A stretch of 64,000 nt of DNA from a phage. Made by a program: the position numbers and the translations under genes. Of this stretch, positions 7,154 through 63,360 are shown piece after piece (the first letter of the stretch is position 1; each line of letters begins with the position of its first letter). The stretch is taken from assembly GCA_019326865.1 (NCBI GenBank), contig GCA_019326865.1_4101.1. One strand, written 5' to 3'. Below the pieces are notes generated by a model. That model was not told the origin of the DNA. It ran no database searches and worked only from the letters and a program-made list of their open reading frames with translations.

Positions 7154-7443
<290 letters not shown>

Positions 7444-56342: not shown

Positions 56343-56525
56343 ATGAATAAAGAACATAAAGACTTCTACATAAGAAAACTAACATTCGTCCCCGTAAGAA
56401 TATACAAAGAATGCGACCCAAGATTATACCTATGGCACTTCAATGAGTGCATAAAAGATTCTATATACCCTAAGAACTATAAAGAACAATTGTGCTCAGT
56501 ACTAACACTAGTACTATCATATTAA
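56343..56525 (+). CDS. micro-protein array member (60 aa)
   Basis: MNKEHKDFYIRKL ... LTLVLSY; preceded by 18-bp tandem duplication. Confidence 0.55.
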   Translation: MNKEHKDFYIRKLTFVPVRIYKECDPRLYLWHFNECIKDSIYPKNYKEQLCSVLTLVLSY

Positions 56526-56538
56526 TAGAGATAATACT

Positions 56539-56730
56539 ATGTATAAAGAGTACTATATAAGTAAACTCAAAGAGAATGAACAAGCATGGATTAAATCTAT
56601 AATAGCACTTGCATTTAATAGATATGCATTTAACAGATGCACAGAGATTGCTATAGAACCTTGTCCTATTAAAGAGAAGGCACAGTACAATCAGTACTAC
56701 TATATGTTAATGCTTATATATAGAAAGTAA
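56539..56730 (+). CDS. micro-protein array member (63 aa)
   Basis: MYKEYYISKL ... MLMLIYRK. Confidence 0.55.
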   Translation: MYKEYYISKLKENEQAWIKSIIALAFNRYAFNRCTEIAIEPCPIKEKAQYNQYYYMLMLIYRK

Positions 56731-57124
56731 TTCAACATAGAGACAGGGGAAGCTCCGCAGGGTAAGCATTGGACAGGCTTTAACATATGTTATATATGTT
56801 AAAATTCAGCCTGGACAAATGCGATCACTAGGATTCTCCCCAGGCTAAACCCCGTAATCATATATAAACATTTAAGTAATCATTTATAATCATTGTGGTG
56901 ATCAGTAGTGATTAGTATTGAGTACTAGAGTGTAATAGAGTACAGGAATGTGCACGTTTAATCAAGAACGTAGCAGTACTGATATGCCACTAAGTAGGCA
57001 GAGGAAGTCTGCCGTACTTTGTAGTTTCCAAGCTCCTTTTCCATTTTGCAAATTACATCAAATGTAATCAAAAGTAATCACGTAATGATTAGTACTGAAA
57101 TATTAGTTTCATCTTTTTTCAAAT

Positions 57125-57200
57125 ACCTTTTTACCCTTCGGGATAAATGTATTTTTATCCATTTACCTTTGGGGTAAAATCCCATTACCCCTTGAGGCTC
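57125..57200. repeat. three degenerate ~15-bp direct repeats
   Basis: TACCCTTCGGGATA / TACCTTTGGGGTAA / TACCCCTTGAGGCT in ORF-free DNA. Confidence 0.5.
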
Positions 57201-57386
57201 CAGCAAAAAGTTGGAAAGTACTCCATCGTAAATATGGATCGTAAAAATTTTGGAGTACCTATGAAATAAAAGTTGGATCTTCGAAAGTTGAAATTTACGT
57301 TGGGACATTGATGTTTTTTGGGATATAATGAGTTTTGTAGTGATGAAGTTTGTACGATTACAGTACTGAATAATGAAAGAAAGCTA

Positions 57387-57414
57387 TTGACATTATGATT
57401 CAGTACTGTATAAT
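57387..57414 (+). promoter_or_regulatory. sigma70-type promoter, family A, with no ORF downstream
   Basis: TTGACA-N16-TGTATAAT with TTCAGTACTG spacer; nearest downstream ORF of 60 aa or more is 1.3 kb away. Confidence 0.5.
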
Positions 57415-57785
57415 GTTCTACATAGAGAGATGAGTTGCCGCAAACAATTCATTCACTCTACCTCCTGTCGTGAGACAGTACAGAAAAGATAGTTCCTCCT
57501 ATGCGTGGTACATCTTTTTATAACCTCTTTTTTCGTAATATAAACAGTACTGGTATTAACAGAATGGTATCAGTACTGACTTTAATCTAATACATTATGC
57601 CACCAGCACAAGCTGGTGGATTCCCTCTAACAGTATTCAGTACTACATGATAGTCTTCATCCTCCTAGGGTAACATAGTGAGGGCTATTGTGGGAGTACT
57701 GAATACTCCTTTCAAAAGATAGAATAATGGTATAGTACCGACGGATTTTGGGCGTAGTTACCCTGGGTGGATTTTGGACGTAGAT

Positions 57786-57932
57786 ATGTCTAGCCCTCCA
57801 GAAGTCTGGAAGTAAAGATGGCTATCCATCTAGACGGCTAAACGGATAGATTTCTAGATGGCTGTATGGCTAGACGTTTGGATGGCTAAACGGCTAGATG
57901 GTTACACGTCTGGAAGTATAGACGGCTAAATC
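57786..57932. repeat. iteron-like cluster of short direct repeats
   Basis: GGCTAAACGG x2, GTCTGGAAGTA x2, GATGGCT x3, TAGACGG x2, TAGATGG x2 within ~150 bp. Confidence 0.55.
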
Positions 57933-58619
57933 AAAATTTTTATTTTGTTTTTCCAATAGTTCCCCTACCGCGTGAGGATATTTTTCCCCGCAGTATCTGG
58001 AGTTAGATTTTTCTGAATCTGGAATCATTATCTAATAAACTGGGGGCAATGTCAACCGCCTGGATGAATATTTTTAAAAATAATCTAGTACTGAATTTTG
58101 GGCGTAACTATGCACCCGGTGGGCTTGAGTCTTTCTCGACTTGATGAAACTATTATACAGTACTAGAAAAATAAAGCAATACCCTAAACGCAAAAAATTT
58201 AATTAATTTGCTTGCTATCCTGGGCCGTACTATGGTACTATTAGTTCAGTACTGAGAAAGTGCTTTAACCTGCTAGGGTGCGGGAGTGTATCCTTTTTAA
58301 ATTATATGAATTTTGGACGCAATCCCGCACCCTGTGGGTTAGTGCCTTGTGTCCGGCTTATGTAGTAATTATACGCTTTTTCAGTACTGAGTCAATAGCT
58401 AAAAACAAAAATAATTGAAAATAATTTAACGCGTTTAAACGGCCCGTAAAGCCCTGGAGTGATTGGAATGGTACAAATGTATAGCTTAGGTGTATTAATG
58501 CGTTAGAATGCGTCTGAGGCCGTTTTACGGGGTGTAGTGGTGATTTGGTTGATTCAGTACTGAATGATAGTATTCCTATATAGAAAGAAAACTATTTTAA
58601 AAGTACATGTAGAAAGTAC

Positions 58620-58647
58620 TTGCAAAGTATTGGGAAAGGTGTAGAAT
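58620..58647 (+). promoter_or_regulatory. promoter, family B (TTGCAA-N16-TAGAAT) + 5' hairpin
   Basis: Followed by TTTTACATCGAG and hairpin AGCGGGAA-CAC-TTCCCGCT (58661-58679). Confidence 0.55.
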
Positions 58648-58702
58648 GTTTTACATCGAGAGCGGGAACACTTCCCGCTGCACATAAAGAGAGATTAAAA
58701 CG

Positions 58703-59065
58703 ATGGCTACTCAAATCAATAAAATTATTGCTAACCTGGTTAACTTCCGCGACGAGATGAAAGGTCTTCCGGCTGAAACGGTAAAAATTCACATTTCAGC
58801 TTATCGGGAACTTATTGCAATGTTACCGCTTAAGCGTGAACAATACGCCGCTACCGTGATGCTTGATGCGATGATCCATGAGATGATCGCCAGTGATTTA
58901 ACGATGGTTTATCAGTACATGGGCGAAAATTTCGCGGTGTCTGGTAAGCCAGTACCAGGGATGGCAACTACTGAGGAATTGCACGGTTTAAATTTAAAAC
59001 AAGATGCATGGGATAATATGCCTCGTTTCCTGGTATGGGCTGACAGTGGCAAAATTTACAAATAA
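58703..59065 (+). CDS. hypothetical protein
   Basis: 120 aa; higher-GC codon usage typical of the 58.6-64 kb block. Confidence 0.55.
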   Translation: MATQINKIIANLVNFRDEMKGLPAETVKIHISAYRELIAMLPLKREQYAATVMLDAMIHEMIASDLTMVYQYMGENFAVSGKPVPGMATTEELHGLNLKQDAWDNMPRFLVWADSGKIYK

Positions 59066-59079
59066 GTTTAATAAAGTAC

Positions 59080-59107
59080 TTGCATACTAAGTTAAAACAA
59101 GTATAAT
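59080..59107 (+). promoter_or_regulatory. promoter, family B (TTGCAT-N16-TATAAT) + 5' hairpins
   Basis: Followed by hairpins GGGAAGTTT/AAACTTCCC and AGGGGAA-TAG-TTCCCC. Confidence 0.55.
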
Positions 59108-59186
59108 ACTTTCTATCAGGTGCAACGGGAAGTTTTTAAACTTCCCTATAGGGGAATAGTTCCCCACTATATAAGAGGATTAAAAA

Positions 59187-59426
59187 ATGGCTAAATCAAA
59201 AATGTTCTTAGGTCACAAAAACAAAACTCATTGGAATGTAAGCCTTTGGATTAATAACGATGAGTCATTGTACCGGTTGGCCCAGGACTTTATTGCCGCC
59301 AACACTAATCGCAATGATGCGGCCCGTCATATGATGTTATTTTTAGAACAGACTGGACAAGATAAAACACCGGACGGATTCAAATATAGCACTACTGCGA
59401 TCCGTGCGGCGATGGTTGGAATGTAA
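59187..59426 (+). CDS. hypothetical protein, 79-aa paralog A
   Basis: SD AGAGGAT; KNKTHWNVSLWINNDESLYR ... PDGFKYSTTAIRAAMVGM; paralog of 61223 ORF. Confidence 0.6.
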   Translation: MAKSKMFLGHKNKTHWNVSLWINNDESLYRLAQDFIAANTNRNDAARHMMLFLEQTGQDKTPDGFKYSTTAIRAAMVGM

Positions 59427-59511
59427 TAGAATTTATTTAAAGTACTATCGCAAAAAATGATAGTACTTTATAATAGTGTTTTATTCATACACCAACGATA
59501 AGGGCAACAGC

Positions 59512-59778
59512 ATGAATATTAAGTATTTTGCGACGCGTGAACAAGCTCGGAAGGCGGCGAAAGTGGAAGGTGCAACGTTTAAAGATATGGGCATACAATC
59601 GGAACGTGGTAAACGTTGGGCCATTGTAAAGCGTAGTACAGCCAGATCATTACAGTACTGGTTATCAGCTTTAAAAAGTCCTGATAGTGTATCGCGTCGA
59701 GTGGTAGAAATAAAGCTCGACCGTAAGGGGAATCGTGTTACCGTGTACCGTACTAAAAAGATTGCAGTACTTGAATAA
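59512..59778 (+). CDS. hypothetical basic protein
   Basis: Track ORF 59476..59778 trimmed to ATG 59512. Confidence 0.45.
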   Translation: MNIKYFATREQARKAAKVEGATFKDMGIQSERGKRWAIVKRSTARSLQYWLSALKSPDSVSRRVVEIKLDRKGNRVTVYRTKKIAVLE

Positions 59779-59784
59779 AAGTAC

Positions 59785-59812
59785 TTGCAAAGTAAGTTAA
59801 AAGGCGTATAAT
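59785..59812 (+). promoter_or_regulatory. promoter, family B (TTGCAA-N16-TATAAT) + 5' hairpin
   Basis: Hairpin GTGGGGAA-TAC-TTCCCCAC at 59825-59843. Confidence 0.55.
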
Positions 59813-59862
59813 ACTTTCTATCAGGTGGGGAATACTTCCCCACTACATAAGAGGATTTAAAA

Positions 59863-60093
59863 ATGGCTACCATGTACATGACCGAAGTTAAAACCGTAAA
59901 AGATACTACCACAAATAAAACTACTTACTTACAGCGGATCTGTGGTGTATGGCAACGTATTAGTAAAGTAAAGTACTTTAAATTAACATCATATGCCAAT
60001 CGTTCGGATTCATTCAGTACTGAAATAAAAGGTAATAAAGTACACCAATACGGCACTTATTATTATTATAGCCTGGACGCGATTGCAGTATAA
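59863..60093 (+). CDS. hypothetical protein
   Basis: 76 aa; SD GAGGAT. Confidence 0.5.
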   Translation: MATMYMTEVKTVKDTTTNKTTYLQRICGVWQRISKVKYFKLTSYANRSDSFSTEIKGNKVHQYGTYYYYSLDAIAV

Positions 60094-60340
60094 GCAGTTT
60101 ACAAATCTTTACAATTGCCGGTATTGACTTAAAATGTCAGTACTGGCATAATGTATCTATTGAAACGAACAATTTGGCCCACGGGGTGCGGGAGTGTATC
60201 TATAGAAAAAGTAGTTTAGTACAGTTACAATTGTGCACCCGGTGGGTTAGCTGTTGTCATGGGGTATATTATGCCAGTACTTGATAATGCTGTCAATACC
60301 TTTTTACTATTCAGTACTGAAAACTATTTGATAAAAAGTA

Positions 60341-60368
60341 CTTGCAAACTATGTTTAAAGGCGTATAA
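60341..60368 (+). promoter_or_regulatory. promoter, family B (TTGCAA-N16-TATAAT) + 5' hairpin
   Basis: Followed by TTTTACATCAGG and imperfect hairpin ACGGGGAAC...CTTCCCGT; no ORF before next promoter. Confidence 0.5.
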
Positions 60369-60458
60369 TGTTTTACATCAGGACGGGGAACGAAATAAGT
60401 AACTTCCCGTTAAGTAGCCCAGGAGTAAGGCATACGAAAAACTCCCCTGATAAAATAG

Positions 60459-60487
60459 TTTGACAATTGTTTTTAAAAGCGTATAAT
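60459..60487 (+). promoter_or_regulatory. sigma70-type promoter (TTGACA-N17-TATAAT)
   Basis: Upstream of ORF 60520. Confidence 0.5.
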
Positions 60488-60519
60488 ACTTACATCAACT
60501 ACTTAATGAGGGTTACAAA

Positions 60520-61131
60520 ATGAAAACTATCACTACTACTACTTATGTTATGGATTTTTCTGAATTAAACGCAGAACAAAAAACGTCAGCTATCGAACTG
60601 GTTCGGGAACGTGAAAAAAACTTAAACGACGATTATTTTTCTGAAAGTGAAATTGAATACTATAAAGAAACAGTACTACCGGAATATGGCATTAATGAAG
60701 CTGAAATACAATTCAGTGGTTTTTGGTCGCAGGGTGACGGTGCATCAATTAGTACTGACCACGTTGACGCAGTGAAGTTTTTACGTAAGGTAAGAGCATT
60801 AACTAAGTATCGCTCAATCCGTCACCTGCTGAATGAAGATGATTTGGCGATGAGTGTAAAGCGTTCTCACTCCCGCTACTCACATGAGAACACTGTAAGC
60901 GGGTACATTGAATCGGCTTACACTGATTTAACCGCAAAACAAGAAACGTTAGTTAATGGGCTTGAGGAACTGCTCACTGATACTATTCGTGAATTGTCAC
61001 GCAAGTTATACCGTGATTTAGAGAATGCATATGAGGATCAATTCACTACTGAAAACATCGTATCACTGATTGAGGGTAACGAATATCAATTCAATGTTAT
61101 TGATGGCGTAGTAGAATCAATTGCATATTAA
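60520..61131 (+). CDS. hypothetical protein
   Basis: 203 aa; SD GAGGGT. Confidence 0.55.
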   Translation: MKTITTTTYVMDFSELNAEQKTSAIELVREREKNLNDDYFSESEIEYYKETVLPEYGINEAEIQFSGFWSQGDGASISTDHVDAVKFLRKVRALTKYRSIRHLLNEDDLAMSVKRSHSRYSHENTVSGYIESAYTDLTAKQETLVNGLEELLTDTIRELSRKLYRDLENAYEDQFTTENIVSLIEGNEYQFNVIDGVVESIAY

Positions 61132-61138
61132 AAAGTAC

Positions 61139-61166
61139 TTGCAAACTAAGTTTAAAAGCGTATAAT
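61139..61166 (+). promoter_or_regulatory. promoter, family B (TTGCAA-N16-TATAAT) + 5' hairpin
   Basis: Hairpin GCGGGGGAA-TGG-TTCCCCTGC at 61180-61200. Confidence 0.55.
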
Positions 61167-61222
61167 ACTTTATATCGAGGCGGGGGAATGGTTCCCCTGC
61201 TCAAACAAACGAGGATTTAAAA

Positions 61223-61462
61223 ATGGCTAGTACTAAAACTTACAACGGACACAAAAACAAAACTCATTGGAATGTTTCATTGTGGATTAATAACGATGAA
61301 TCATTATACCGGATTGCTCAAAATTGCATCGCTCAAAGTAAAACGAAAGATATTGCAGCGGAATTTATGTACCGCAGATTAAAAGCCAACGGTACTACTA
61401 CAACGCCGGACGGATTCAAGTATAGCACTACGGCGATCCGTGCTGCAATGGTTGGAATGTAA
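61223..61462 (+). CDS. hypothetical protein, 79-aa paralog B
   Basis: SD GAGGAT; same KNKTHWNVSLWINNDESLYR and PDGFKYSTTAIRAAMVGM blocks as 59187 ORF. Confidence 0.6.
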   Translation: MASTKTYNGHKNKTHWNVSLWINNDESLYRIAQNCIAQSKTKDIAAEFMYRRLKANGTTTTPDGFKYSTTAIRAAMVGM

Positions 61463-61518
61463 CATTCAGTACTGAATCAATGGCGGGTGTGGTTCCCGCC
61501 TTTACTGAGGATTATCTA

Positions 61519-61800
61519 ATGAGTAAAGTAATTAACTATACAGTACTAAGCAAGTCATTATCTATTAGCCAGTGCACCGATGGTTTTTGGCTGTACGATG
61601 AAACGCGTGGCATGAATTTAGCTATGCAGGAGAAAACTGCTGATGCGGCATATCTTAAAGCACTGGAATACTACCAGAAGCGTTTAACGGAAGTAGAAAA
61701 CGATTATAATAACCTTAAAGCGAAAGTGGATAATTTCGTTGGTCAATTCGTTGACGATGACGAGGGGCACTACTGCGACCGTTGTGGATCTTACAGTTAA
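61519..61800 (+). CDS. hypothetical protein
   Basis: SD GAGGAT before ATG 61519; track start 61480 rejected. Confidence 0.45.
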   Translation: MSKVINYTVLSKSLSISQCTDGFWLYDETRGMNLAMQEKTADAAYLKALEYYQKRLTEVENDYNNLKAKVDNFVGQFVDDDEGHYCDRCGSYS

Positions 61801-61817
61801 GTACTAAGGATTATATA

Positions 61818-62021
61818 ATGAGTGATTTAATTGAACGTATCAAAGAGCTTGAAGAAAAAGAATTGCAGTTGATCGGTTTACAGAATAAAATCTATCATGA
61901 TTTGGGGAGTTTTATCAATGCGTGGGATAATGGCGATCCTGATGCGTTACCTGCTAACCGCCAGGCAATGATCAATGATGTGCGTGGTGTCTTTGAGTAT
62001 GTTTTAAAGCAATTAAATTAA
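61818..62021 (+). CDS. hypothetical protein
   Basis: SD AAGGAT before ATG 61818. Confidence 0.45.
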   Translation: MSDLIERIKELEEKELQLIGLQNKIYHDLGSFINAWDNGDPDALPANRQAMINDVRGVFEYVLKQLN

Positions 62022-62031
62022 AAAAAAGTAC

Positions 62032-62059
62032 TTGCAATTAGTTTTTAGTACTGTATAAT
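62032..62059 (+). promoter_or_regulatory. promoter, family B (TTGCAA-N16-TGTATAAT) + 5' hairpin
   Basis: Hairpin AGGGGAGAA-ATG-GTTCTCCCT at 62070-62090. Confidence 0.55.
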
Positions 62060-62109
62060 GTTTTACATAGAGGGGAGAAATGGTTCTCCCTGGTAATGAG
62101 GAAAATACA

Positions 62110-62331
62110 ATGGCTAATATCACTACTCTTTCTCAACTGGAAGCACTGGTTAAATCTATGCGGGAACATGCCGACAAAATCGGCGTAAAAGATCCAGCCG
62201 TTTGCTTCTGCGACGAAATGAATGATGATACATTGGTAATAGCAGAAGTTCAGGACGTTTCTAACTATTCATCGCGTTACACTGGCGGCGTAGCAAATAA
62301 AGGTGACTTCTGTTTATACCTTACCAAATAA
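62110..62331 (+). CDS. hypothetical protein
   Basis: SD GAGGAAAA before ATG 62110; first ATG lies inside 5' hairpin and was rejected. Confidence 0.5.
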   Translation: MANITTLSQLEALVKSMREHADKIGVKDPAVCFCDEMNDDTLVIAEVQDVSNYSSRYTGGVANKGDFCLYLTK

Positions 62332-62336
62332 CAACG

Positions 62337-62366
62337 CGGGGAGATAATAACTCCCCGTTACTTTTT
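62337..62366 (+). terminator. rho-independent terminator
   Basis: CGGGGAG-ATAATAA-CTCCCCG followed by T-run. Confidence 0.55.
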
Positions 62367-62499
62367 CAGTACTGAATAATTTAATAGACGGATCTATGCA
62401 CCCAGTGGGTTAGTGACTGTTTCGTCTTTATGTAGTAATTATGCCAGTACTGGATGCACTTGTCAACAACTATTTTTCAAATACTTTTTATTAAAATAC

Positions 62500-62527
62500 T
62501 TGCAATTAGTTTTTAAACGCGTATAAT
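62500..62527 (+). promoter_or_regulatory. promoter, family B (TTGCAA-N16-TATAAT) + 5' hairpin
   Basis: Hairpin GGGGGAGCGGTTCCCC at 62538-62553. Confidence 0.55.
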
Positions 62528-62574
62528 GTTTTGCATAGGGGGAGCGGTTCCCCTGGTAACTAAGGAATAAGAAA

Positions 62575-62811
62575 ATGGTCGAACAAATCAAATCAACGTC
62601 TTCGAATGTAACGGGAACGGTAGCACACTTTACTTGTGATGAATCGCGGGGCGTTCCCTATTGTGCTGTACATGTAAACACTGAGGGTAACTACTGGTTT
62701 ACGGTTTACGGATCATATTCATTTGGACGGCCAGGGCATCAAAAAATTCTGGATAAAGTACAACCAACGGGTAAAAATATCACTGCCGAAATGTTTTATA
62801 AAAACAAATAA
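62575..62811 (+). CDS. hypothetical protein
   Basis: 78-aa ORF. Confidence 0.5.
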   Translation: MVEQIKSTSSNVTGTVAHFTCDESRGVPYCAVHVNTEGNYWFTVYGSYSFGRPGHQKILDKVQPTGKNITAEMFYKNK

Positions 62812-62828
62812 AAGTACTTGATAATAGT

Positions 62829-62856
62829 TTGACTATGTATTACAGTACTGTATAAT
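62829..62856 (+). promoter_or_regulatory. promoter (TTGACT-N16-TGTATAAT) + 5' hairpin
   Basis: Spacer contains TACAGTACTG; hairpin AGGGGCGAA-TAG-TTTGCCCCT. Confidence 0.5.
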
Positions 62857-62905
62857 AGATACATAAGGGGCGAATAGTTTGCCCCTAGTACAAAGGGGAA
62901 ACATT

Positions 62906-63136
62906 ATGCCAGGCCGAATAGTTTTACTTAACGCTGGAAGTACTACACAACTCCTTAACGCCGTGTATTATGATATTGAAACGAGCGTCAATCTTATCAG
63001 TACTGTAGTATTGTTGGACACTGGAAAGGTCGCAAATGATAAAGCGATTGCAGGTATACTAACGGATCTTAAACCAGGTTGCAGTACTCCAATAACTTTA
63101 AATGATAAAGTGTTTAATATTTTACTAACTGATTAA
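62906..63136 (+). CDS. hypothetical protein
   Basis: SD AAGGGGAAA before ATG 62906. Confidence 0.5.
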   Translation: MPGRIVLLNAGSTTQLLNAVYYDIETSVNLISTVVLLDTGKVANDKAIAGILTDLKPGCSTPITLNDKVFNILLTD

Positions 63137-63142
63137 GTACAT

Positions 63143-63170
63143 AGCCCACCTGGTGGGCTTTTTTGTTTTT
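63143..63170 (+). terminator. rho-independent terminator
   Basis: AGCCCACC/GGTGGGCT hairpin + T-run. Confidence 0.7.
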
Positions 63171-63208
63171 GTAGTACTGCATACTTTGAAAATAGTTTTA
63201 AAAAAGTA

Positions 63209-63237
63209 GTTGACATTACCGCAAAAAGGCGTAGAAT
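63209..63237 (+). promoter_or_regulatory. sigma70-type promoter (TTGACA-N17-TAGAAT)
   Basis: Followed by TTACATCAAG leader. Confidence 0.5.
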
Positions 63238-63360
63238 GTATTACATCAAGACGGGGAGCACTAAGTAGACCGCCAGTAAGTCGAACGAAAAACTGGACAC
63301 GTCGAGAAAACTTTGATACACTAACTAACATAAACTAAACTTTAATTGAGGATTTATAAA

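Follow-up and report, generated by a model that had tools for sequence, protein, structure and literature searches.

A gene-free segment in an Asteriusvirus genome

Judged by its sequence, the 64-kb stretch of DNA analysed here (the window) belongs to an Asteriusvirus, a jumbo coliphage of the 121Q/PBECO4/G17 type; a 3.5-kb query matched Asteriusvirus genomes with 88-92% identity. Between positions 56731 and 58702 lies a repeat-dense segment of ~2 kb in which the initial annotation had seen no credible open reading frame (ORF), and this was confirmed. The longest ORF of the gap, with 76 aa (57078-57308, minus strand), gave no match in PHROG and Pfam searches, whereas the flanking genes do match PHROG families. 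The homologous ~1.9 kb of phage G17 is likewise annotated without genes; its chance ORFs are not those found here, so that the ORFs of the gap are not conserved in G17, and the indels that distinguish relatives in the gap have lengths that are not multiples of three, such as a 31-bp insertion in this phage at ~57143-57173. ARAGORN detected neither tRNA nor tmRNA in the gap. Searching the whole 64 kb against Rfam at gathering thresholds returned tRNAs elsewhere and nothing in the gap, and relaxing the search to E <= 10 on 56400-59000 returned noise only. The features of the segment are, from left to right:

56746-56841, plus strand: long, imperfect hairpin immediately following the last ORF of the unique region (ORF end at 56730; alignment A1 columns 43-157)
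56854-56895, plus strand: 10-bp-period repeats of GTAATCAT type (TRF period 10), on the unique side, ~100-140 bp before the end
56993-57013, plus strand: start of the direct terminal repeat (DTR) and predicted physical end, cut between 56992 and 56993, placed by identity with relatives' record ends
57057-57098, plus strand: 10-bp-period repeats GTAATCA AAA GTAATCA CGTAATGATTAG, on the DTR side, +65 to +105 from the end
57125-57203, plus strand: TTACCC-type short repeats and hairpins, with the 31-bp insertion of this phage
57244-57288, plus strand: conserved block AAAATTTTGGAGTACC...GATCTTCGAAAGT, invariant in Asteriusvirus
57387-57414, plus strand: consensus sigma-70 promoter, TCAGTACTG abutting the -10 element, no ORF after it
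57421-57730, plus strand: predicted structured non-coding RNA of ~200-310 nt, with six hairpins and three CCUCC motifs
57745-57780, plus strand: two ATTTTGGRCGTAG motifs immediately before the array
57784-57927, no strand assigned: tandem 8-bp array, consensus AGAYGKCT, 14 contiguous units (57816-57927) and two more in register (57784, 57800)
57949-57974, plus strand: conserved post-array block TTTTCCAATAGTTCCCCTACCGCGTG, from the alignment of relatives
58027-58055, minus strand: promoter-like site TTGACA-17-GATAAT (11/12, consensus match only), pointing to the array and the chromosome end
58092-58179, minus strand: repeat element copy ATTTTGGGCG..GCACCCGGTGGGC (plus-strand letters), repeat families D10 and D18
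58209-58395, no strand assigned: inverted-repeat module with arms AGGGTGCGGGA (58275-58285) and TCCCGCACCCT (58323-58333)
58620-58702, plus strand: promoter AAAGTACTTGCAA-16-TAGAAT and 5' leader hairpin (58661-58679) of the first DTR gene, whose ATG is at 58703

The probable chromosome end and its flanking repeats

A packaging or terminal region had been among the functions first proposed for the segment, and the comparison with relatives supports it, as the DTR boundary at 56993 is exactly identical to termini determined in related phages. The G17 record terminates at the homologue of 56993, as the reverse complement, in ...GGCAGACTTCCTCTGCCTACT, while the records of fEgEco12 and vB_Ec-M-J open at the equivalent position (AGTAGGCAGAGGAAGTCTGCC / AGTAGGCAGAGGAAGTCTGCCGTAC). 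At the right copy in fEgEco12, the junction between unique region and DTR reads ...CCCACTA directly followed by AGTAGGC, as in this phage. Both copies of the ~21-kb DTR are visible in G17, whose record closes with a second copy of positions 1-20,668, their features recurring at 350,150-370,817; the 64-kb stretch alone cannot show both. The termini of these relatives were established by PhageTerm and restriction digests for fEgEco12 (PMC13070987), by PhageTerm for Sharanji, with a DTR of 20,668 bp (PMC11895373), and by read coverage for G17 (PMC6563267). Searching IMG/VR with the exact terminus sequence returned the 121Q genome itself only. By homology, the physical end of the chromosome in this phage is placed at 56993, the start of a ~21-kb DTR. 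Because the DTR starts there, the gap consists of a 262-bp tail of the unique region and a 1.71-kb non-coding DTR leader. In the virion, a chromosome end would be formed by one copy of the sequence from 56993 rightwards, and the 64-kb stretch shows the other context, the unique region followed by the DTR.

Several elements surround this position. The hexamer GAAGTC at 57004-57009 occupies +12 to +17 from the end and is found at the same offset at the record starts of CBB and Serratia phage BF. A terminus hairpin, GGCAGA-GGAAG-TCTGCC, spans 56997-57013, and the alignment of relatives shows that it is not kept in phage A4. The long hairpin at 56746-56841 folds with -39.2 kcal/mol (z = -3.3), its outer stem being conserved and its apical part variable among relatives. 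On the unique side, GTAATCA occurs at 56854 and 56876; on the DTR side, vB_Ec-M-J carries one additional 10-bp unit (alignment A1 columns 439-448). In pac sites of the pacL/pacR type, as in SPP1, repeats bound by the small terminase stand on both sides of the cut. The 10-bp-period GTAATCA repeats at -140 to -100 and +65 to +105 might be repeats of this kind, with a significance that is weak because the motif is not enriched window-wide (23 copies in 64 kb). In concatemeric DNA, the terminase would cut between 56992 and 56993, possibly guided by the end-proximal GAAGTC at +12 and by the 10-bp repeats that flank this position. Further inside, the TACCCTTCGGG-type repeats previously noted at 57125-57200 are present, and relatives carry there a TTTACCC-TTCG-GGGTAAA hairpin and a further TTACCCC copy. 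The conserved block at 57244-57288 can also be made out in Mimasvirus CBB and Eneladusvirus BF, about as far from the end as here.

Transcription signals and the 8-bp array

The promoter at 57387, described from the start as having nothing coding behind it, matches the consensus at 12/12 positions (TTGACA-16-TATAAT). It is invariant in eight relatives, and a promoter also occupies the equivalent place in CBB and BF. The RNA predicted downstream has a minimum free energy of -100 kcal/mol against -66.7 kcal/mol for shuffled sequences (z = -6.5). The structure is retained in an alignment fold of five sequences, with many G.U pairs and four pairs changed on both sides, although the covariation support from these four compensated pairs is modest because the diversity of the relatives is low. 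The G.U-rich helices work on the plus strand only, and the hairpin at 57600-57619 inside the RNA is annotated as a terminator in G17. Host sigma-70 RNA polymerase would use this perfect promoter, ~400 bp from the end and pointing inwards, before the non-coding RNA, which is a candidate for the first transcript of infection.

The inner part of the leader contains further putative transcription signals. The element at 58092-58179 follows a TATAAT on the minus strand (58157-58152), the -35 of which (TTGCTT) is weak. In the inverted-repeat module at 58209-58395, the arms have on their flanks a promoter on the minus strand (58395-58368, TTGACT-16-TATAAT) and a weak promoter-like site on the plus strand. 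This module recurs at 60124-60296 and 62378-62466, and also in CBB, BF, Yen9-04, and Klebsiella phages of Alcyoneusvirus. Both recurrent motifs reported in the initial annotation are well above expectation: ATTTTGGRCG has five matches in the 64 kb where 0.16 would be expected, four of them at 57745-58319, and the CACCCNGTGGG-type elements have seven against 0.57, including the copies at 60.2 and 62.4 kb. The promoter and leader at 58620-58702 open a series of 8-9 near-identical early promoter/leader cassettes that extends from 58.6 to 63.3 kb (repeat families D1, D2, and D12). These cassettes would express the small, host-takeover-type genes of the DTR.

These signals could also be read as chiefly a cluster of small regulatory RNAs, formed by the RNA behind 57387 and RNAs from the modules, with the nearby chromosome end being incidental. 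The z-score of the fold and the strand-specific G.U helices are in line with such a cluster, as are the sigma-70-like promoters found 25-35 nt before each GCACCCNGTGGG element, in both orientations, and the conservation of the modules in four Rak2-like genera. However, the predicted RNA matches no Rfam family even at E <= 10, most candidate ends are without clear terminators, and neither the exact placement of the DTR boundary nor the array would be explained. We regard the RNA cluster as a possible but doubtful main function; it is compatible with the segment being a terminal region and not opposed to it.

The iteron-like repeats initially placed at 57786-57932 are real and have a period of 8 bp (TRF periods 16 and 24; repeat spacings 8, 16, and 24). 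CBB and BF carry ATTTTGGGTGTA just before the array, in the same place, and the copy number varies among relatives in steps of 8 bp. In E. coli, the operators of the methionine regulon bound by the repressor MetJ are tandem 8-bp metboxes with the consensus AGACGTCT (PMC4239095, PMC3228920), recognised as at least two adjacent 8-mers that each reach at least one quarter of the consensus score and together at least the consensus score (PMC3228920). Scored with the published matrix, the array comprises 14 adjacent boxes with a total of 98.4 bits (threshold 12.58) and is the only qualifying run in the 64 kb, the maximum in shuffled windows being 23.6 bits. Every unit passes the matrix threshold, which only 1% of all 8-mers do. 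A correlation of r = 0.88 links the base frequencies of the array to those of real metboxes, and it is confined to a single register; at position 6, G is present in 56% of the units, against T in 87% of real metboxes. The units thus look like binding sites for the host methionine repressor, binding itself being a prediction. Like MetJ operators, the array is built of contiguous 8-bp units in one register with the same spectrum of allowed and forbidden bases. Unlike them, the phage arrays have 14-28 boxes instead of 2-5, their units are asymmetric, often with G at position 6, and they do not stand at a methionine gene: no methionine/SAM gene promoter lies near the array, the nearest promoter-like sites being ~370 bp to its left and ~95 bp to its right. 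The repressor TrpR also binds at 8-bp spacing, via CTAG. It was set aside on the ground that the bases flanking CTAG are unlike those of trp operators.

Similar arrays were found in the non-coding terminal regions of T5-like and PGT2-like phages. Besides Rak2-like jumbo phages, the lineages that bear them are PGT2/phiKT-like podoviruses and the T5-like phages that infect Vibrio, Aeromonas, and Providencia. The arrays of the T5-like phages stand beside perfect SOS and DnaA boxes and are followed by a sequence related to the post-array block, CCCTCCTGCGCC. The hosts belong nearly all to bacterial orders that have MetJ, the exception being that of one array-bearing phage, Xanthomonas phage XbC2, whose listed host comes from an order reported to be without it. 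The array is not universal in Rak2-like phages, since none lies within 3 kb on either side of the homologous module in K64-1, a related Klebsiella jumbo phage whose host has MetJ. Such arrays do not look copied from an E. coli host, because that of Aeromonas phage AhSzq-1, a relative of the present one, had no BLAST match in 5,426 complete E. coli genomes. In IMG/VR, a strict three-box pattern was found in six contigs only, which carry no host data and are therefore uninformative. A literature search on MetJ or metboxes together with phages or terminal repeats returned nothing relevant, and a preprint on T5 (Davison, bioRxiv 10.1101/866236) makes no mention of MetJ, Fur, or LexA.

The 14-16 boxes would be bound cooperatively by a protein of the ribbon-helix-helix type, most likely host MetJ with SAM, and the bound array would act as a nucleoprotein block that separates the rightward promoter from the leftward promoter-like site. 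That the arrays are genuine high-occupancy MetJ platforms, placed beside chromosome ends by several unrelated lineages of terminal-repeat phages, is a tentative proposal drawn from matrix scores and genome comparison, to which we give somewhat less than even weight. If true, phage chromosome ends would carry a toolkit of host-regulator sites, and the array could brake or ratchet DNA entry, insulate end-proximal transcription, or titrate MetJ and so de-repress methionine/SAM synthesis.

Conservation and comparison with terminal regions of other phages

The GC content of the gap is 0.375, against 0.327 in the bulk of the 64 kb and 0.335 in the adjacent small ORFs, and that of the downstream genes is 0.387. 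The initial annotation was thus right about GC-richer DNA downstream, while the different codon choice it described was borne out in part only: the two ORF blocks that flank the gap have the same GC3 of 0.37 (0.23 further upstream), and what changes at third positions is the balance of C and G. The GC skew switches from -0.19 to +0.11 at ~56.7 kb, and the cumulative skew has its minimum at ~56.5-57 kb.

A skew minimum, a strong promoter with no gene behind it, tandem repeats, and the T4-type replisome carried by Rak2-like phages (PMC5259590) are features that would also suit a replication origin, in which the promoter at 57387 would make a primer RNA (an R-loop, as in T4 oriF/oriG) or the repeats would act as initiator-bound iterons. 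However, the skew flips where one block of genes gives way to another, the negative-skew block consisting partly of minus-strand genes, and the repeats are contiguous units resembling a repressor operator instead of helically phased iterons of 17-22 bp. No initiator gene adjoins the region, and consensus scans of 56400-59000 for DnaA, LexA, Fur, and IHF sites found none; for DnaA, this interval contains neither TTWTNCACA nor TTATCCACA with up to one mismatch. The T5 region, to which this one may be analogous, is not the origin (Davison, bioRxiv 10.1101/866236). An origin is therefore less likely than a terminal region, and we consider it improbable.

The changes in GC and skew could also mark a recombination seam, or a junk spacer, between modules of different ancestry, with repeats that arose by slippage and have no function. 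This earlier proposal keeps a weak basis in that the segment does hold the junction between unique region and DTR, where ~150 bp to the left of the end, outside the repeat, vary by indels among relatives; the copy number of the array also differs between them. Against this, the leader is conserved across Asteriusvirus, with long invariant stretches in eight genomes, and in outline also in Mimasvirus and Eneladusvirus, the order of its elements recurring in CBB (in which the DTR start is annotated) and Serratia phage BF. These other genera are reported to share ~25-30% nucleotide identity with Asteriusvirus (PMC13070987 Table 2). The leader is not a patchwork, because element order is conserved across three genera, and divergence among the array units stays inside the narrow set of 8-mers permitted by the MetJ matrix. 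A seam or junk spacer seems very improbable, even more so than an origin.

In our judgement, the segment is quite probably a conserved non-coding terminal control region of the Asteriusvirus chromosome. Such a region would bring together signals for forming the end, for early transcription by host polymerase and, probably, for controlling how the DNA enters. Reports of long terminal repeats in jumbo phages are now numerous, but the literature searched contained no description of what lies at their boundaries. A nucleotide-exact end with conserved neighbouring signals constitutes a candidate packaging site, and a further testable prediction is that a host metabolic repressor binds beside the chromosome ends in three phage families. 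Should MetJ indeed bind there, the methionine/SAM status of the host would be linked to the earliest steps of infection, and Davison's idea of DnaA boxes in the T5 injection stop would extend to more host-factor sites.

Other phages with terminal repeats offer points of comparison. In SPO1, the terminal redundancy holds a host-takeover module, and the present DTR is similar in being a long terminal repeat full of small early genes, each behind a strong host-type promoter. Unlike here, the host of SPO1 is Gram-positive, and the sequences are unrelated; we know of no SPO1 equivalent of the 8-bp array. The left end of T7-type phages, as described by Dunn and Studier in 1983 and in the DNA-entry work of Molineux, reportedly has a terminal repeat, short repeat arrays, and strong host-polymerase promoters within the first kilobase. 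The leader resembles it in the succession of end, short repeats, inward strong sigma-70 promoter a few hundred bp in, and co-oriented early genes, and in the T7-like phage PGT2 the same 8-bp array lies 40-110 bp in from the left end. The repeat measures ~21 kb here, against ~0.2 kb in T7.

In T5, the untranslated "Repeat Region 3" of the left terminal repeat is the region of the injection stop signal (Wang 2005 annotation, AY587007; Davison, bioRxiv 10.1101/866236). Both regions are kilobase-sized, ORF-free tangles of conserved direct and inverted repeats that straddle the boundary of a long terminal repeat, that of T5 measuring 1.2 kb with 270 bp in unique DNA and the present one 1.97 kb with 262 bp on the unique side. 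They differ in that the T5 region follows the pre-early operon and occupies the inner end of the left repeat, whereas this one precedes co-oriented early genes, and the paired DnaA boxes (IRD'-spacer-IRC') and the SOS-box-like palindrome of T5 are absent here. T5 itself is without the 8-bp array, whereas T5-like phages of Vibrio, Aeromonas, and Providencia have the same kind of array in that region. By analogy, the role of the segment would parallel those of the untranslated region of the T5 terminal repeat and of the T7 left end.

Position of the chromosome end

The segment between 56731 and 58702 (hereafter the gap) contains no convincing ORF, as the initial annotation had proposed; the longest, of 76 aa, was without a PHROG or Pfam match, and the genes flanking the gap on either side do match PHROG families. 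The homologous 1.9 kb in the annotation of phage G17 is also empty, bar one predicted terminator, its chance ORFs are not those of the window, and the lengths of indels between relatives in the gap are not divisible by three. The 3.5 kb around the gap showed 88-92% identity to Asteriusvirus genomes (121Q, PBECO4, G17, SP27, fEgEco12, and others), which are 350-kb "Rak2-like" jumbo coliphages. Seven tRNA genes lie at 4-9 kb of the window, and plus-strand ORFs fill the rest, except for five minus-strand genes at 46.9-53.2 kb. ARAGORN predicted a tRNA-Ser with the unusual anticodon ACT (normally GCT) at 7192-7283, where Rfam also places a tRNA (49.9 bits).

The downstream sequence is GC-richer, as had been claimed (0.327 in the bulk, 0.335 in the adjacent small ORFs, 0.375 in the gap, and 0.387 beyond), and GC skew changes from -0.19 to +0.11 at the gap start. 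The accompanying claim of a different codon choice was only partly right, GC3 being equal in the ORF blocks on both sides. Between 53215 and 56730 lies a tight row of plus-strand ORFs of ~60 aa, which match a PHROG family and are also annotated in relatives. Its AT skew is +0.18 and its GC skew -0.19; the latter has the sign opposite to that seen in other plus-strand genes of the window and the value seen in the adjoining minus-strand block.

Direct terminal repeats (DTRs) of ~20-22 kb have been published for phages of the Asteriusvirus/Rak2-like group, including CBB (coverage and PFGE; PMC5259590), G17 (coverage; PMC6563267), Sharanji (20,668 bp, PhageTerm; PMC11895373), and fEgEco12 (20,993 bp, PhageTerm, confirmed by restriction digests; PMC13070987). 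The G17 record repeats the features of 1-20,668 at its opposite end and terminates in ...GGCAGACTTCCTCTGCCTACT, the reverse complement of window 56993-57013. Both fEgEco12 and vB_Ec-M-J, the latter annotated "Direct Terminal Repeats 1-21525", have records that open with AGTAGGCAGAGGAAGTCTGCCGTACTTTGTAG, identical to the window from 56993, and the right-hand copy of fEgEco12 has the junction ...CCCACTA/AGTAGGC, the same as in the window. Because these ends, starts, and junction coincide there, position 56993 is, by sequence identity, the predicted first base of the DTR. Among the candidates of the initial annotation, a packaging or terminal region thus agrees with a DTR boundary inside the gap, located by identity with the termini of relatives.

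Features of the gap and adjacent DNA
56731-56992: tail of the unique region, 262 bp
56993-58702: non-coding leader of the DTR, 1,710 bp
57387, rightward: promoter, 12/12 consensus positions
57600-57619: hairpin in the predicted RNA
57784-57927: tandem 8-bp array
58055, leftward: promoter-like site
58603-63255: eight to nine early cassettes

Conservation of the leader and its predicted RNA

In a nucleotide alignment of eight Asteriusvirus genomes, the leader holds long invariant stretches, among them the chromosome end, the block AAAATTTTGGAGTACC...GATCTTCGAAAGT, promoter 57387, and the array together with what follows it, and the ~150 bp immediately outside the repeat show many indels. Variation within the region is greatest in this flank, on the unique side of the cut site; in fEgEco12 (locus positions 2140-2240, alignment columns 300-360) the flank carries three additional copies of ATTCAGTACTG just outside the repeat, absent from the window. 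Two more records, Pectobacterium phage CBB (genus Mimasvirus, position 1 being the annotated repeat start) and Serratia phage BF (genus Eneladusvirus), start with the same element order, for which Yersinia phage fHe-Yen9-04 is also cited.

Order of leader elements in CBB and BF
1: end, with GAAGTC at +12 to +17, the offset identical to that of the window
2: TTTTGGAGTACC block
3: sigma-70 promoter with no ORF behind it
4: ATTTTGGGTGTA
5: 8-bp array, 670-810 bp from the end
6: TTTCCATTAGYTCCCCTTCCGCG
7: inverted-repeat module CCCACAGGGTGCGG...CCGCACCCTGTGGG between facing promoter-like sites
8: first early promoter, of AAAGTACTTGCAA/TTGAC type

Judged from this conservation, the leader appears to be a conserved functional region, not spacer. 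The rival reading of a functionless seam is contradicted by the same conservation.

The 310 nt after promoter 57387 fold at -100 kcal/mol, compared with -66.7 kcal/mol for shuffled controls (z = -6.5), and the six hairpins are retained when five distinct sequences are aligned. The pairs include many G.U, whose counterparts on the opposite strand would be mismatched A.C, and several one-sided A-U to G-U switches; both sides changed in four pairs. The hairpin at 57600-57619 corresponds to the "terminator" of the G17 annotators, but is without a U-tract. Its form is CCACCAGC-ACAA-GCTGGTGG (alignment columns 1024-1043), and among relatives the loop is ACAA or its reverse complement TTGT, as though inverted; phage A4 has a compensated stem (TTACCA...TGGTGA). 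Three CCUCC motifs occur in the predicted RNA and CU-rich stretches at the same place in CBB and BF, any importance of which is speculation. The predicted RNA matched no Rfam family. A pure small-RNA locus would be compatible with the terminal-repeat explanation, not opposed to it.

The repeats listed in the initial annotation were all found, above chance expectation: ATTTTGGRCG with 5 matches (0.16 expected), CACCCNGTGGG with 7 (0.57 expected), including the copies at 60.2 and 62.4 kb, and the iteron-like repeats as an array of 8-bp period at 57786-57932. A sigma-70-like -10 element precedes every GCACCCNGTGGG element by 25-35 nt, whichever way the latter is oriented, and copies of GCACCCNGTGGG are often paired as a facing inverted repeat (58275-58285 with 58323-58333; 60178-60246), with one copy at 62399. 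The module is kept in CBB, BF, Yen9-04, and Klebsiella Alcyoneusvirus phages, and its elements may be short RNA genes or leader hairpins. ATTTTGGRCG accompanies these elements and also stands immediately 5' of the array.

Beyond the leader, the DTR consists of small genes in series, each with a near-identical strong promoter and 5' hairpin, laid out as A-tract, AAAGTACTTGCAA, 16 nt, TATAAT, ACATC, GGGGAAnnnTTCCCC-type 5' hairpin, and ribosome-binding site. The promoter and leader at 58610-58700 are ~80% identical to intergenic DNA of unrelated ~150-kb coliphages (Phapecoctavirus, Justusliebigvirus). One small gene is present in two copies (59175-59426 and 61211-61462; 79 aa, DUF7249/phrog_871), with 79-91% DNA identity and a spacing of 2,036 bp. 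The palindrome AGTACT (extended consensus TCAGTACTGA) is by far the most over-represented 6-bp palindrome of the whole window, with 184 copies against ~22 expected (8.5-fold), densest at 54-64 kb and enriched in coding (2.4 per kb) and intergenic DNA (5.1 per kb). It adjoins the -35 (AAAGTACTTGCAA) or -10 (CAGTACTGTATAAT) in many promoters and stands out just as much in the leaders of CBB and BF; in Aeromonas phage AhSzq-1, it replaces the core of the T5 DRD repeats.

The 8-bp array and its counterparts at other phage ends

The first seven units of the array, in register, are AGATGGCT ATCCATCT AGACGGCT AAACGGAT AGATTTCT AGATGGCT GTATGGCT, and the last seven AGACGTTT GGATGGCT AAACGGCT AGATGGTT ACACGTCT GGAAGTAT AGACGGCT. 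Operators of MetJ are tandem 8-bp "metboxes" with the consensus AGACGTCT (PMC4239095). Scoring with the published information matrix and thresholds (PMC3228920, Table 3) gave exactly one qualifying run in 64 kb, of 14 adjacent boxes and 98.4 bits against a threshold of 12.58 bits, with two more good boxes just upstream in the same register; shuffled windows reached a maximum of 23.6 bits, and the per-box threshold is passed by 1% of all 8-mers. Base frequencies of 82 units from six phages correlated with those of real metboxes in the array register (r = 0.88) and not in the other seven (r -0.31 to 0.03), a comparison that is partly circular, the units having been chosen by the same matrix, with few excluded since the arrays are contiguous. 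The bases most penalised by the matrix are absent from these units, and the main deviation is at position 6, which is G in 56% of units and T in 87% of real operators. Array length among aligned relatives changes by 8-bp steps. The "iterons" therefore look like a MetJ operator, and binding is predicted. An origin of replication in the gap, another candidate of the initial annotation, is less likely, its usual hallmarks being absent.

BLAST searches with the gap and with arrays of other phages as queries gave array matches confined to unannotated, non-coding DNA.

Phages with arrays
Rak2-like genera (CBB, BF, Erwinia pEa_SNUABM phages, fHe-Yen9 phages): 40-810 bp from record starts
T5-like Demerecviridae of Vibrio, Aeromonas, and Providencia
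T7-like PGT2, PSK2, and phiKT: in PGT2, 40-110 bp from the left end
A Pseudoalteromonas phage

MetJ matrix scores were 62 bits for fHe-Yen9-04 (9 boxes), 56 for PGT2 (9), 112 for Vibrio phage Pontus (15), and 221 for AhSzq-1 (28). In Providencia phage PR1, the pre-early terminator is followed by a perfect SOS box (CTGTATATCTATACAG), two perfect DnaA boxes (TGTGGATAA), and nine near-consensus metboxes (GGACGTCT AAACGTCT ... AGACGTCC), ~770 bp short of where the left terminal repeat is annotated to end. No 8-bp array was detected by the matrix scan in T5 itself, nor was one found near the homologous module of Klebsiella phage K64-1.

Hosts of the array-bearing phages belong to Enterobacterales, Vibrionales, Aeromonadales, and Alteromonadales, which are reported as MetJ-bearing orders; this match is suggestive, not proof, as the database is dominated by phages of those same orders. 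The missing array of K64-1 is a further caveat. Xanthomonas phage XbC2 (OP292654.1; a 368-kb jumbo phage listed with a Xanthomonas host) has a metbox-like array at 695-764, ~700 bp from the record start, and Xanthomonadales are reported to be without MetJ and to use a different regulator. Either its natural host differs or this case counts against the MetJ reading.

Proposed working and comparison with T5 and T7

The analysis shows the end position, gene absence, conservation, promoter sequences, predicted RNA structure, and operator-like array grammar, and the following working is proposed around them. Concatemers would be cut by terminase between 56992 and 56993, guided by GAAGTC at +12 and by 10-bp repeats on both sides. 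After ejection, host polymerase would initiate at 57387 and in the early cassettes further downstream, all of them directed away from the end. A cooperative protein array, most likely MetJ-SAM, would form on 57784-57927, with the rightward promoter on one side and the leftward promoter-like site at 58055 on the other, and may act as a brake or ratchet on DNA entry, insulate transcription, or soak up MetJ.

For close relatives, earlier publications already describe the DTR and where it begins. Within the literature searched, no description was found of how the non-coding leader is built, of its conservation among Rak2-like genera, of the predicted RNA, or of a metbox-like array common to Asteriusvirus, T5-like, and T7-like phages, nor any paper connecting metboxes to phage ends. 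One component of the gap region could be new biology.

In T5 (AY587007.1 9000-10800), "palindrome D" TACTGTATAAATATACAGTA (locus positions 331-350) is a perfect SOS (LexA) box, and the DRC repeats AAATGAGAATCATTATC (470-640) agree with the Fur-box consensus at 15/19 positions, counted by eye; DnaA boxes are the only ones mentioned in Davison's analysis of T5. The AATGAGAATCATT motif of the DRC repeats also occurs in the loop of the inverted-repeat module of BF and fHe-Yen9-04. The PR1 metboxes occupy the position of T5 "Repeat Region 3", a proposed injection stop signal, and the gap region as a whole is classed with the terminal-repeat control regions of T5 and T7 type.
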